Shown here: positions 25,698-49,705 of the stretch, in pieces | Numbering within the stretch: position 1 is the stretch's first letter | How the letters are laid out: the number at the start of each line of letters is the position of its first letter | Source of the DNA: Kiritimatiellia bacterium | GTDB taxonomy: Bacteria > Verrucomicrobiota > Kiritimatiellia > RFP12 > UBA1067 | NCBI GenBank assembly: GCA_017454745.1 | Contig: JAFTCL010000019.1 | Span: 1-54,448 of the forward strand | Direction: 5' to 3' | Length of the DNA: 54,448 nt | Notes under the pieces: model-generated | What the model was told of the DNA's origin: nothing | What the model saw: only the letters and a program-made list of their open reading frames with translations | Databases searched by the model: none | Program-made: the position numbers and the translations under genes

Positions 25698-27350
25698 ATG
25701 GGGATTTTTTCCGACAGATGTTGGGCGTTGATCGATAGAACAACCGGCAGGGCTTTGACTGGTGAAGCGTTGAAGGAGGCTCAAAAAGACCCGCGTTGGC
25801 CGCGCTGCGGCACCGCAGTAAGCAAGCAGGCCCGGTTTTGCCGTTCATGCGGGGCACCGGCTCCTGGCGGATGGTGGAAATGCCCGGCGTGCAACAAGTG
25901 GATCGGTAACGACGCGCGTCACTGTCCTCATTGCAATGAGCCGCTTTATCCGGAAGACCGAGTGGCTATTGCCGGTGGTGTGTGGCGCAAAGAGCCACGC
26001 CTGTTTGCCCAACGTTTTGAGATTGGAGATGTCAAACGGCTTTTAACTCAAGAACTGCTCATCCAAGAGGGGACTCTTGCGATTGTCATGGACGGTGGAC
26101 GCGTTTGCGGGTTGATTGAATCCGGTAGGCACAACCCAGATTCTCTTGCCCGTAAGATTAACTGGTTCGGTAATCCTCCTCCTCGTAGCGTGGTGTTGGT
26201 GGATGTAGGCGAGGTCATTGCTCCTTTGCATATCGAGGGGCTTAGGACCGCAGAGCATTTTCCAATAGAGTTTTACGGTGAAGCGATCCTGCGTTTCAAG
26301 GGTGACATCAACGCTGCCAGGTCTTTTACGGCAAATGTCCTCAAGGAACAGCGTTCCTGCGAATTTTCTGACCTAACCATGCGTCTTGAACCCGCTATTC
26401 GTGGTGTGGTCGATGAAATGTGCACCACTTCAACTCTGGACGATTTGGTGCGCGACCCTGACCGTCGGATTCGCTTGCACGAAATTATCACTTCGCGAAT
26501 CAAGGCAGACCTTGCCGCTTGCGGATTGGAGGCAGAGCGTGTTTCTTCGGCCGAGTTTACCGGTGATAAGTATGAGGAGTACGCCGAGAATCTTGGGCAG
26601 GTTGACGAGGAGCGCCGGGAGATAGAATACCGTGCCGCACTCCGCAAACTGGCCGATCAGGAGGCGATGGATCAGTACAAGGATGCCGACGCGTTGCGAA
26701 GCTACAAGGAGATAATCGACCATGAGTTTCGCGTGTCTCACGAAACCCGCGAACGCGAGTTTGCCTTATTGAAACGAGAGTGGGAACATGACGACATCAA
26801 GTACAGGTGGTTACTTGAACTTGAGAAGCAAGAACATGATCATGTGATTGATACGAATGGCCATGTGCATGTAAATGAGATTAATCTCCTTGATGCTAAC
26901 GGTCGACTTGATGTAACCAAGGTTCAAGCCGAAATTGACAGAGTTGTCAATGACGAGAAGATTGACGAGTCGAAGAAATGGCTTGAGGTGCGTCGACTGA
27001 AGATGCTTTTGGAACAGGAGAACAAACGACTTGACGCTGAACGTCGCAAGAATATGACGATCGAGCAGATGATTGCCGATGTCGAGGATCCCGAGGTTCG
27101 TTCGCAGTTGCTGGAGGTGTTTAAACTTAAGATTGAGCAGCAACGGATCGAGCGAAACGTCAATATGTCCCCAGAGCAGTTACTTGCCGAATTGGGGCAG
27201 GATCCAGTTAACGCAAGACTCGTTGCCAAGATGGAAGAGTTGTTCCATCATGCCGCTGACCGTGAGGACAAAAATCTCGGAAAGATGCTTGAACCGGCTG
27301 TTGAGGCAGCAAAGCATCCGTCTATCCAAAACGGGCCGATTATCAAATGA
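25698..27350 (+). CDS. Zinc-ribbon protein with a putative SPFH/band-7-like domain and a long C-terminal coiled coil
   Basis: N-terminal double zinc ribbon (CGTAVSKQARFCRSCG; CPACNKWIGNDARHCPHCN). Central region (GTLAIVMDGGRV...SVVLVDVGEVIAPL...TMRLEPAIRGVVDEMC...RIKADLAACGLE) has the SPFH-like alternating pattern, then an ~250-aa charged coiled coil. ggagg RBS before the ATG at 25698. Confidence 0.5.
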   Translation: MGIFSDRCWALIDRTTGRALTGEALKEAQKDPRWPRCGTAVSKQARFCRSCGAPAPGGWWKCPACNKWIGNDARHCPHCNEPLYPEDRVAIAGGVWRKEPRLFAQRFEIGDVKRLLTQELLIQEGTLAIVMDGGRVCGLIESGRHNPDSLARKINWFGNPPPRSVVLVDVGEVIAPLHIEGLRTAEHFPIEFYGEAILRFKGDINAARSFTANVLKEQRSCEFSDLTMRLEPAIRGVVDEMCTTSTLDDLVRDPDRRIRLHEIITSRIKADLAACGLEAERVSSAEFTGDKYEEYAENLGQVDEERREIEYRAALRKLADQEAMDQYKDADALRSYKEIIDHEFRVSHETREREFALLKREWEHDDIKYRWLLELEKQEHDHVIDTNGHVHVNEINLLDANGRLDVTKVQAEIDRVVNDEKIDESKKWLEVRRLKMLLEQENKRLDAERRKNMTIEQMIADVEDPEVRSQLLEVFKLKIEQQRIERNVNMSPEQLLAELGQDPVNARLVAKMEELFHHAADREDKNLGKMLEPAVEAAKHPSIQNGPIIK

Positions 27351-48900: not shown

Positions 48901-49705
48901 TACCCCTTTACACATTGCAAGCGAATCTAGCAATGCTGAACTCGTGTCCGCTTTGATAGACAATGGAGCAAATTTAGAGGCAACTGATGCAAACGGGGCA
49001 ACAGCACTCTATCTTGCATGCACAGAGTATGGTATTGACGAAAGAACTATGAACATAATAAAAATTCTACTCCGGCGCGGCGCAAACCCGAACGTGGCCG
49101 ACAAGACTGGTAAAAAGCTTTTGGATGCCGTAAAGAATGCCGATGTGAAGAAACTGCTTCTGGACGCGGCAGGGCTGCGCGGCAACGTTGCGCTTGGCAA
49201 TGTACAACGGGAAAACGGAATACAGAACCAAACCGACAAGACTCGGCAGGTAACGGAAATTGCGTTAAAAGCATTCGCGGCAGGTAATTGGGATGATGGT
49301 ATAAAGCTGTCGAAGCAAGGCGATGAAACTGACCCTCGGTTGCAATACTGGCGCGGCTATTGCGCTGAGAAGGGAATCGGAGAAGCAACCGACGAGAAAA
49401 AAGCGGCGCAGCTCTACCTTCAGTCTGCGAACGGCGGTTGTGCAGAGGCGCAGCATCGTTACGGGCTGATGTGTTTCATAGGTCGGGTCGTGGAGAGAAA
49501 TTTAGGTGAAGCGATGCGCTGGAATGAGAAAGCAGCTGAACATGGGAATGTCAAAGCGCAAAAGTTTCTCGCAATACAGTGGGATGGCGGGCATTCAGTC
49601 CCGCGCAATGAAGAAAAGGCTGTCAAATGGTACCGTCTAGCCGCCAAGAATGGGGATGAGGAAGCAAAAAAATGGTTGCAAAACAAAACAATCGGTTTGA
49701 ACTAG
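45995..49705 (+). CDS. Receptor-type Ser/Thr protein kinase (kinase 3): kinase, TM, coiled coil, ankyrin repeats, C-terminal Sel1 repeats
   Basis: N-terminal ~330 aa nearly identical to kinase 2 ([24 protein letters not shown]...[39 protein letters not shown]). TM [18 protein letters not shown]. Ankyrin-like TPLHIA / GATALYLAC units. Three or more Sel1-like units at the end. Start at the ATG at 45995 by analogy with kinase 2. Confidence 0.8.
   Translation: [1236 protein letters not shown]

Follow-up and report, generated by a model that had tools for sequence, protein, structure and literature searches.

A conserved Kiritimatiellia gene cluster joining receptor kinases to an FHA adaptor and an ESCRT-III-like Snf7/AAA module

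The window analysed here, a stretch of 54,448 nucleotides that makes up positions 1 to 54,448 of contig JAFTCL010000019.1 of a Kiritimatiellia bacterium (GenBank assembly GCA_017454745.1), carries between 25.7 and 49.7 kb a cluster in which genes for an SPFH protein, a protein with a forkhead-associated (FHA) domain, a Snf7-type protein of the ESCRT-III kind (endosomal sorting complexes that are required for transport), an AAA ATPase and a coiled-coil protein are followed by envelope proteins, a metalloprotease and three receptor kinases, K1 to K3. All genes of this interval lie on the + strand and either overlap or are separated by no more than 157 nt, in keeping with the co-directional, closely spaced genes that the initial annotation of the window had described, and Pfam confirmed every element of the cluster at its coordinates (Table 1). 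That annotation had also placed the FHA gene inside the cluster about 7 kb upstream of the kinases, and the distance from its end to K1 is indeed 7.1 kb; it had called this gene the only FHA gene of the window, and no second one was found among the main open reading frames (ORFs), a scan that did not take in every ORF of at least 100 aa. The genes upstream in the window are housekeeping genes (rnpA, yidC, rpsL/rpsG, PPDK), and the contig is chromosomal. A terminator/promoter scan was uninformative, with no excess of terminator-like sites across the co-directional cluster. We judge it fairly probable that this is a conserved, chromosomal, envelope-spanning cluster of gut and rumen Kiritimatiellia in which receptor kinases are functionally coupled to the SPFH/FHA/Snf7/AAA/coiled-coil module, with four exported proteins and a protease of predicted periplasmic location as its further members, and comparative genomics strongly supports such a predicted coupling.

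Related loci were collected from four sources, namely a look-up of FHA homologues, a scan of one genome per species of the Genome Taxonomy Database (GTDB) with the FHA alignment (7 matches), a metagenome scan with the Snf7 alignment (20 loci), and AAA and Snf7 homologues on long contigs; gene order was then mapped with phmmer by comparing the window proteins with all ORFs of the loci. The seven GTDB-species matches comprise five Kiritimatiellia/Kiritimatiellae, one 'Verrucomicrobia' UBA metagenome-assembled genome (MAG) and one 'uncultured bacterium' (RUG), with sheep rectum and cattle abomasum as the sources where given. The cluster recurs in dozens of related loci from Kiritimatiellia genomes and metagenomes, in the order (HTH_17)-SPFH-FHA-Snf7-(0-2 STK)-AAA-coiled coil-X406-lipoprotein-repeat protein-U49(x1-2)-(1-3 STK), where STK stands for a serine/threonine kinase and U49 for the metalloprotease. 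The SPFH gene comes first in all related loci when HTH_17 is not counted, the coiled-coil gene adjoins the ATPase gene in the loci that reach that far, L010 excepted, and the genes for X406, the lipoprotein and the LA_2272-repeat protein are all kept in synteny. In all type-1 loci except L010, which has neither, the ATPase gene is one to three genes away from Snf7.

Kinase genes are present in 18 of the 22 non-redundant loci of at least 10 kb, one to five in each, inside or beside the cluster; three of the remaining loci end at the cluster edge, and the fourth, L010, is complete. The initial annotation had named beforehand, as the outcome that would count against it, that kinase array and ESCRT-like operon are never co-located in relatives, and these 18 loci clearly contradict that. 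Each of the 34 kinase domains detected has the orientation of the cluster; 32 are inside the cluster or at most 5 kb away, the remaining two are K2 and K3 of the window, and about 58 kb of distal flanks contain no kinase domain apart from the tandem array of the window. At least 15 loci have a kinase directly between Snf7 and the ATPase, the slot that is held in the window by the small gene at 29369..29998. Co-location of kinase, FHA, Snf7 and AAA genes is far beyond chance. The complete locus without kinases points the same way: L010 (CADCOC010000026.1, 8208-16112) retains two U49 genes along with those for SPFH, FHA, X406, the lipoprotein and the repeat protein, and its FHA domain still has the GR, S and H residues; it has no Snf7, AAA or coiled-coil gene and no kinase at all, and is followed by a giant ORF that exceeds 1600 aa.

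A type-2 variant (L003, L004, L042) has the order HTH-SPFH-FHA-...-C1 peptidase/lectin-C14 caspase-Snf7-AAA-U49, with an added C14 peptidase of the caspase-like kind and papain-like C1 peptidases that carry lectin-like domains, with Snf7 and AAA at the distal end, and with the lipoprotein multiplied to three paralogues; a kinase with an FGE domain (STK-FGE) stands at one edge of this variant too. A distant relative, in a Planctomycetia MAG (L041, JAUNBK010000040.1, 906-9499), is a Snf7-like gene (23% identity, E 5.5e-14) amid three further helical paralogues of about 210 aa and beside an AAA ATPase gene, followed by unknown proteins and a DUF4384 protein; no FHA, STK or SPFH gene was found in this locus. 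The Snf7-AAA pair seems to be older and wider in the Planctomycetes-Verrucomicrobia-Chlamydiae (PVC) group than the coupling to kinases. In one lineage, which includes L033 and L040, the cluster lies directly downstream of recC-recB-recD, a fixed chromosomal position. Insertions between the in-operon kinase and the ATPase were also seen, namely a type IV restriction gene of the GmrSD kind (DUF262/DUF1524; L017 12097-14394, L039 17191-19488) and an IS200-like transposase gene (L019 2858-3910, L026 13412-14461), both absent from sister loci such as L040.

Table 1. Features of the cluster in the window, with the median identity of their relatives to the window proteins across type-1 loci
Feature	Positions	Strand	Evidence	Median identity
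SPFH/Band_7 protein, N-terminal double zinc ribbon, long C-terminal coiled coil, cytoplasmic	25659..27350	+	Band_7 1e-8, DZR, Zn_ribbon	56%
FHA adaptor	27347..28765	+	Pfam FHA E 4.7e-12, residues 306-369	30%
Snf7-type ESCRT-III protein, 194-196 aa	28762..29352	+	Snf7 E 4.3e-5 for window protein	82%
Small zinc-ribbon/LA_2272-repeat protein	29369..29998	+	Zn_Ribbon_1; NCBIfam LA_2272_repeat 9.7e-15	
Single-domain AAA ATPase	30045..31151	+	Pfam AAA 5e-37 and AAA_lid_3	74%
Zinc-ribbon coiled-coil protein, 288 aa	31148..32014	+	Synteny; zinc ribbon	59%
X406, exported, signal peptide and C-terminal transmembrane anchor	31959..33179	+	Hydrophobic helix 385-403	56%
Lipoprotein, lipobox ...FSGC	33204..34022	+	Sequence	58%
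Exported LA_2272-repeat (GxQIG) protein	34046..34708	+	NCBIfam LA_2272_repeat 1.3e-9	53%
Membrane-anchored HExxH metalloprotease, Lit/U49/M48 kind	34675..35802	+	Pfam M48 5e-5	47%
Receptor kinase K1: Hanks kinase, transmembrane helix, coiled coil, 21 Sel1 repeats, beta-helix	35898..40823	+	Pfam	
Split Thr motif of K1	35916-35975	+	Motif comparison	
Receptor kinase K2: Hanks kinase, transmembrane helix, Ala-rich coiled coil, FGE/C-type-lectin fold	40866..44111	+	Pkinase 2e-39, FGE-sulfatase 3.5e-47	
Split Thr motif of K2	40881-40960	+	Motif comparison	
Variable region (VR), last 50 codons of K2	43961..44112	+	152-nt copy of template repeat	
Reverse transcriptase of the diversity-generating retroelement	44269..45540	+	Pfam RVT_1 4e-17; YMDD, IGNLTSQ	
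Template repeat (TR), AAC-codon-rich	45254..45405	+	Repeat comparison	
HRDC-domain accessory protein of the retroelement	45531..45950	+	Pfam HRDC 8e-16	
Receptor kinase K3: Hanks kinase, transmembrane helix, ankyrin repeats, Sel1	45947..49705	+	Pfam	
Split Thr motif of K3	45995-46075	+	Motif comparison	

Pfam, sequence motifs and a single transmembrane helix in each bear out the description of K1, K2 and K3 as transmembrane kinases with Sel1/beta-helix, coiled-coil plus FGE, and ankyrin/Sel1 ectodomains. Pkinase matches range from E 1e-39 to 1e-40, and each protein retains the G-loop, VAVK, HRD, DFG and APE motifs, so that all three look catalytically active and would be expected to phosphorylate their targets. 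As the transmembrane helix follows the kinase domain (residues 350-368 in K1), they are receptor kinases with C-terminal ectodomains. Across the loci the sensor part is exchanged freely, with FGE, Sel1, LysM, ankyrin, beta-helix, DnaJ-type Cys repeats, Lcl_C and a fusion to an Upf1-like helicase, and STK-FGE is the most recurrent kinase type; sister loci can differ in the sensor domain at the same position (Sel1 plus FGE in L039, TonB_C in L040). The helicase fusion (AAA_11/AAA_12, about 1557 aa) lies 3' of U49 in one lineage (L033 14941-19614; L040 20382-end).

What the kinases have in common is an N-terminal motif of the TINNDVTM type. The expression [TS][IM]N.D.T[ML], which was derived post hoc from the same data that it was used to count, matches 26 of the 33 distinct cluster-associated kinases, in two sub-families, compared with a mean of 0.5 and a maximum of 4 in shuffled controls. 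The motif lies 26-30 residues before the G-loop (up to 37 in one kinase). The window kinases carry a split variant of it, which reads MSDFDNDKTLINNA..RTI in K1 (DKTLINNA...RTI) and MDDFYDDRSLRENA..NTL in K2 and ends in ..KTL in K3, and its position leads us to place the start codons of K2 and K3 probably at 40881 and 45995. We regard the shared motif as a candidate phospho-acceptor or FHA docking tag; to serve receptors that are otherwise exchangeable, a single FHA adaptor would require a Thr tag common to them. The juxtamembrane segments, which the initial annotation had suggested as partners of the FHA domain, were rejected as its target, as the three linkers contain no Thr.

The protein that would read such a tag consists of a zinc ribbon (residues 1-25), a disordered linker (29-98), a beta-sandwich (102-203), helices (205-258), and the FHA domain with a C-terminal beta domain (265-460). 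Its FHA domain scores 46.6 bits in Pfam against a cutoff of 20.7. An AlphaFold2 model has a mean predicted local distance difference test (pLDDT) score of 74.5 overall and of about 90 in the FHA region, and its best Foldseek matches are Rv1747 FHA-1, GarA (complexed with PknB), Rad53 FHA1, Chk2 and OdhI, all of which are phosphothreonine (pThr) readers that partner Hanks kinases. G309, R310 and S336 do not vary among 13 aligned homologues. Among 22 distinct orthologues taken from the loci, the Gly-Arg pair of the beta3-4 loop and the Ser of the Ser-x-x-His stretch in the beta4-5 loop are found in 21 of 21 and the His (H339) in 19 of 21, the other two having Gln. The other outcome that the initial annotation had named as counting against it, a lack of the pThr-binding Arg, Ser and His, is thus contradicted as well, with Arg and Ser present throughout and His nearly so. 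Together, profile, model and alignment show this to be a true FHA fold whose predicted pThr-contacting residues are intact and which would bind pThr.

The FHA adaptor is at the same time the fastest-evolving core gene, with a median identity across loci of 30% versus 47-82% for the others. The invariance of its Arg and Ser despite this low overall identity indicates selection on phosphate binding, and fast evolution fits an adaptor that follows variable partners. It also explains why the FHA-based protein search returned just 13 homologues when searches with AAA and Snf7 found the system to be far commoner. An exact look-up of the 472-aa protein gave no match. The start annotated by NCBI lies 46 codons downstream (426 aa instead of 472 aa), which drops the zinc ribbon (region 27347-27484); this ribbon is present in 12 of the 13 aligned sequences, the window protein included. 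The window copy is without an insert of about 23 aa, rich in Cys (CxxCP...WC), that most homologues carry. As to the neighbouring SPFH protein, it has no transmembrane helix, and its start codon is probably Met14, at about 25698.

All 10 orthologues of the 196-aa Snf7 protein match the Snf7 profile (best E 8.1e-8) and none matches PspA_IM30, and some are named 'Snf7 family protein' by NCBI; the window protein alone scores 23.7 bits, under the Pfam cutoff of 27.3. A profile search of the PDB with the family puts the yeast Snf7 core on top (residues 23-138), at an E-value of only 0.29. In the alignment the hydrophobic N-terminus MGFLFFK is invariant and a C-terminal amphipathic helix, PSMEELEKxLQEEV, is conserved; in the window protein this helix reads PSMEELEKNLQEEV. 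Two threonines, T71 and T99, are invariant as well. These features support its membership in the Snf7 family, and by analogy it would polymerise on membranes. At 90% identity the family falls into 489 clusters, and at 50% identity it has 141 representatives; a mobile-element origin was rejected, since phage, plasmid and IMG/VR collections contained no homologue of this protein.

The ATPase consists of one AAA domain of the classical clade plus lid, with relatives in more than 120 metagenome clusters at 69% identity or above. Walker A, Walker B and the pore loop SKWYGESE are invariant, the last of which resembles the Vps4 pore loop. Helices at residues 4-20, 24-44 and 48-73 are modelled at its N-terminus with pLDDT 73-87; with the shallow alignment available to AlphaFold2 the AAA domain is poorly modelled (pLDDT 60), and Foldseek cannot separate p97-D2, Vps4 and katanin. 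The adjoining 288-aa coiled-coil protein has a conserved acidic C-terminal motif, FDAELAGFDGELG. Two of nine family members match Snf7/CHMP4B weakly (E 0.025), the PDB match to CHMP4B is non-significant (E 0.5), and hhalign detected no similarity between the Snf7 family and the coiled-coil family; the protein may be a second, divergent ESCRT-III-like subunit.

The envelope side of the cluster is made up of X406, which has a weak LpoB-like match (NCBIfam, E 0.004), the lipoprotein, the LA_2272-repeat protein and the protease; the small protein in the kinase slot has an N-terminal signal or anchor segment, a zinc ribbon and surface repeats of the LA_2272 type. The protease has the active site HESGH and a transmembrane helix (residues 56-74) that follows an Arg/Lys-rich segment, and this N-in topology predicts a periplasmic catalytic domain. 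Its orthologues match Peptidase_U49 (PF10463), and the window protein itself matches only M48 (5e-5) in Pfam, besides the PADLOC models peptidase_U41 (6e-6) and Lit (5e-4).

One of the three receptors is the target of a diversity-generating retroelement (DGR). VR and TR differ at 26 positions, 23 of which are adenines in the TR, and together with a reverse transcriptase carrying YMDD and IGNLTSQ, an HRDC accessory gene and an FGE-fold target with a C-terminal VR they make up the features expected of a DGR. The initial annotation spoke of DGR-diversified sensors in the plural; the DGR is real and K2 is its target, while a scan requiring a match at all non-A positions of the TR found a single VR in the window, at the end of K2, and all three kinases as targets were therefore rejected. 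In a self-BLAST that took the A bias into account and covered all 42 fetched loci, none of the 41 others had a DGR-type repeat, and so the DGR appears to be a lineage-specific add-on and not part of the design of the system. The block of K2, reverse transcriptase and HRDC gene (41.0-46.0 kb) has 61-69% GC compared with 44-58% around it, and K2 and K3 share 86% DNA identity over their 5' 300 nt, which suggests that the cassette, target included, entered a kinase array that was already there, by insertion or recombination. The layout of the cassette is unusual, with the TR inside a 3' extension of the reverse transcriptase ORF (45254-45540), the last 100 or so codons of which are a low-complexity read-through of the TR, and with an HRDC gene that overlaps the stop codon of the reverse transcriptase.

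We propose that the cluster would work as follows. Variable ectodomains (FGE/C-type lectin, Sel1, LysM, Ank, beta-helix) would, to judge from their domains, bind ligands in the envelope or outside the cell. An activated kinase would phosphorylate Thr, for which its own activation loop and the N-terminal Thr motif are the best candidates, and the FHA adaptor would dock on the resulting pThr. At the activated receptor, adaptor and SPFH protein could then nucleate or localise a polymer of Snf7 on the inner membrane, and the AAA ATPase, by analogy with ESCRT-III and Vps4, might remodel or recycle the polymer. The result could be that the membrane is repaired locally, or that it buds away from the cytoplasm and possibly removes the activated receptor, the latter in line with the archaeal idea of phosphorylated cargo (PMC11188069). 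The DGR on one STK-FGE kinase would allow ligand specificity to be rewritten, as an add-on to this general design. Cell division as the role was rejected, since the cluster appears patchy and variable in the loci collected.

Several observations weigh against this proposal. We infer every step beyond the co-location and intactness of the genes from sequence. The FHA domain does not keep the canonical Asn of the beta6-7 loop, which we take to be the equivalent of Rad53 N107 on the strength of the motif alignment. The 22 locus-derived orthologues have G, Y, F, A, C, Q or W there, the window protein having Gly, so that peptides may be recognised in an atypical way; the Asn is retained in two database homologues, P0009 and P0010. 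The ATPase cannot be assigned to Vps4. Its end-to-end match to CdvC in NCBIfam reaches 199 bits against a cutoff of 650, with CDC48 (216) and PAN (200) likewise far below their cutoffs; its Arg-finger region is Cdc48-like; a MIT domain was matched neither in Pfam nor in a PDB search with the N-terminal 95 residues, and Pfam gave no Vps4_C match. The earlier description of the module as Snf7/Vps4 therefore stands for Snf7, with 10 of 10 orthologues, and is not established for Vps4, the similarity of the ATPase to which lies in architecture only. No PP2C-type phosphatase was found in any locus scanned with Pfam, the window included; type VI secretion systems (T6SS) and archaeal phospho-switch systems usually have one. 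The Planctomycetia locus suggests that an ESCRT-like pair can work without kinases, and the post hoc origin of the Thr-motif expression adds to these points.

If the genes were merely neighbours, kinases would have accumulated at insertion or recombination hot spots and the FHA protein would be a phospho-independent scaffold. The slot between Snf7 and AAA does accept unrelated inserts (the IS200-like element, GmrSD, the zinc-ribbon repeat gene of the window), the number and type of kinases vary from locus to locus (0 to 5), and the missing canonical Asn and phosphatase partner would be accounted for. However, insertion at hot spots would hardly orient 34 of 34 kinase domains in one direction and leave the distal flanks beyond the window array empty, nor give two kinase sub-families one N-terminal Thr motif; the association is found in both type-1 and type-2 clusters, the FHA Arg and Ser are invariant at 30% overall identity, and in L010 the kinases and the ESCRT-like genes have been lost together. 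These points, together with the location of many kinases inside the operon and with the purifying selection that acts on Arg and Ser, lead us to consider accidental neighbourhood very improbable. A different wiring, in which the kinases act directly on Snf7, the coiled-coil protein, SPFH or the ATPase and the FHA protein does not bridge to the receptors but serves, like GarA and OdhI, as a kinase substrate or an auto-inhibited regulator, seems to us unlikely, if less so. GarA and OdhI, kinase substrates that switch by intramolecular pThr binding, are indeed among the fold matches, the FHA linker (residues 29-98) is long, disordered and rich in Thr, Ser and Pro, and the invariant T71 and T99 of Snf7 would offer acceptors. 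Yet the linker threonines are not conserved, and direct regulation would leave the N-terminal motif shared by the kinases unexplained.

The biological role could also be that of an immune or conflict system, in which variable and DGR-diversified kinases sense phage or competitors, pThr-FHA binding triggers proteases, and SPFH, Snf7 and AAA protect or disrupt the membrane. This concerns the role and is compatible with kinase-to-FHA wiring. Conserved machinery, a fast adaptor and hypervariable sensors fit either an immune-like or an environment-tuned system. L039 and L040, which differ only in the sensor domain, and the rapid evolution of the FHA adaptor are what an immune role would lead one to expect, as are the caspase-like and papain-like proteases of the type-2 variant and the GmrSD gene and IS200-like element inside the operon in some loci. 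The DGR acts on an FGE sensor, and conflict systems are known to feature FGE/CLec sensors that DGRs diversify (PMC7159879, PMC10907252). The protease matches the PADLOC models Lit and peptidase_U41. The U49/Lit family is known from phage exclusion; Lit cleaves cytoplasmic EF-Tu, however, and the protease of the cluster is predicted to be periplasmic. PADLOC identified no known defence system, with matches limited to generic AAA models (IetA, TRIP13) for the ATPase gene and weak models for the protease. The neighbours are housekeeping genes (rpsL/G, PPDK, yidC, recBCD) rather than a defence island, no homologue of its Snf7 protein turned up in the phage, plasmid or IMG/VR collections, and in one lineage the cluster holds a fixed position after recBCD. 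On balance we regard an immune role as possible but rather doubtful.

The closest known parallel to the coupling of kinases to an ESCRT-like module through an FHA adaptor is archaeal. The Halo_FHA and Main ESCRT groups combine ESCRT-III and a Vps4-type ATPase with an FHA protein and membrane Ser/Thr kinases, and the Meth_adaptin group adds an SPFH protein with coiled coil and zinc ribbon (Makarova et al. 2024, PMC11188069). These loci are known by comparative genomics alone, and the authors put forward for them a phospho-dependent sorting in which the ESCRT machinery recognises phosphorylated proteins; the abstract describes ESCRT components as not identifiable in bacteria (PMC11188069). The present cluster likewise unites an ESCRT-III-type protein and an ATPase with FHA, STK and SPFH-coiled coil-zinc ribbon proteins. 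It differs in its bacterial (PVC) host, in an ATPase with no sequence-detectable MIT domain, and in having no Ser/Thr phosphatase and, by Pfam, no winged-helix (ESCRT-II-like) or adaptin-appendage protein; its FHA domain is fused to a zinc ribbon and a beta-sandwich, and lipoproteins, LA_2272-repeat proteins, the U49 protease and one DGR-diversified kinase are added.

In the H1-T6SS of Pseudomonas aeruginosa (PpkA, Fha1 (TagH), PppA, TagQRST), a receptor kinase with a periplasmic sensor phosphorylates Thr, an FHA scaffold responds and a membrane-associated, AAA+-serviced machine is assembled. The cluster shares with this pathway a single-pass Hanks receptor kinase, lipoprotein and periplasmic accessories, an FHA protein and an AAA+ ATPase, and the best NCBIfam FHA-family match of its FHA protein is T6SS TagH, at a weak E 6e-5. 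In contrast to the H1-T6SS, the output module is SPFH/Snf7/AAA and there are several kinases with interchangeable sensors; no T6SS core domain and no PppA-like phosphatase was found in the Pfam scans of the window or the related loci.

DGR-diversified kinases have been described in cyanobacteria as kinase-CLec/FGE proteins (Vallota-Eastman et al. 2020, PMC7517822), and DGR-diversified 'antigen sensors' have been reported (PMC10907252). K2 resembles the cyanobacterial proteins in its N-terminal Ser/Thr kinase and C-terminal lectin/FGE fold, in a VR at the extreme C-terminus, in adenine-specific changes and in the IGxxxSQ reverse transcriptase. Unlike those targets, which are mostly predicted to be cytosolic, K2 is a transmembrane receptor and is embedded in an FHA/ESCRT-like cluster; the HRDC accessory gene and the TR within the 3' extension of the reverse transcriptase ORF are further differences.

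Within bacteria, the ESCRT-III superfamily is represented by the PspA/Vipp1 stress systems, including PspA-Band_7 operons (PMC11237479, PMC8281802). The cluster resembles these operons in combining an ESCRT-III-superfamily protein with an SPFH/Band_7 protein and in a likely role at the inner membrane, and it differs in that its protein matches Snf7 and not PspA_IM30 and is paired with a classical-clade AAA ATPase. A Vps4-like ATPase appears to be absent from bacterial ESCRT-III systems according to a 2025 review (PMC7619361), and the reported bacterial Vps4-like genes, which are transferred, have lost their snf7 neighbour (PMC11237479). Reviews place Snf7-type ESCRT-III with a Vps4-like ATPase in archaea and eukaryotes and leave to bacteria only PspA/Vipp1 without such an ATPase (PMC7619361, PMC11188069), and the accessory proteins of the archaeal loci, namely FHA, Ser/Thr kinases and SPFH with zinc ribbon, recur in the cluster. 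Our full-text literature searches found no published description of this bacterial cluster, and judged from its genes it is a putatively kinase- and FHA-coupled Snf7/AAA system of bacteria, here with a DGR-diversified receptor.

It is tempting to go further and suppose that PVC bacteria own a genuine ESCRT machine of the Snf7/Vps4 type, switched or targeted by interchangeable receptor kinases, one of them hypervariable here through its DGR, by way of a fast-evolving FHA protein that reads a shared N-terminal pThr tag. Such a machine would be the counterpart, or a horizontally acquired relative, of archaeal phospho-dependent sorting, and would serve ligand-triggered repair or vesiculation or an immune-like shedding of receptors. 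We put this forward tentatively, as a possibility on the unlikely side. If the cluster works as proposed further above, ESCRT-type machinery would reach bacteria in the PVC group, which has long been discussed for its eukaryote-like membranes; bacterial proteins that can be expressed heterologously would be at hand for testing a prokaryotic ESCRT driven by Thr phosphorylation; and K2 would be the first DGR-diversified receptor with an identifiable downstream pathway. Since the kinases share a Thr motif and the FHA domain never varies in its Arg and Ser, the central step can be tested directly with peptides.

The cluster has further genes on either side in the window. On the 3' side of K3 (49778-54031) there are two small genes for lipoprotein-like products of 223 and 298 aa, one for an intramembrane protease of the PrsW family and one for an AAA_14/DUF4143 ATPase, which were not found in related loci and therefore probably lie outside the system. 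On the other side, divergent from the SPFH gene, a gene at 24333-25418 (- strand) encodes an S49/SppA-type peptidase with a weak NfeD1b_N match; it is not kept in the other loci, which have the HTH_17 gene instead, and its arrangement with the SPFH gene is reminiscent of NfeD-SPFH gene pairs.

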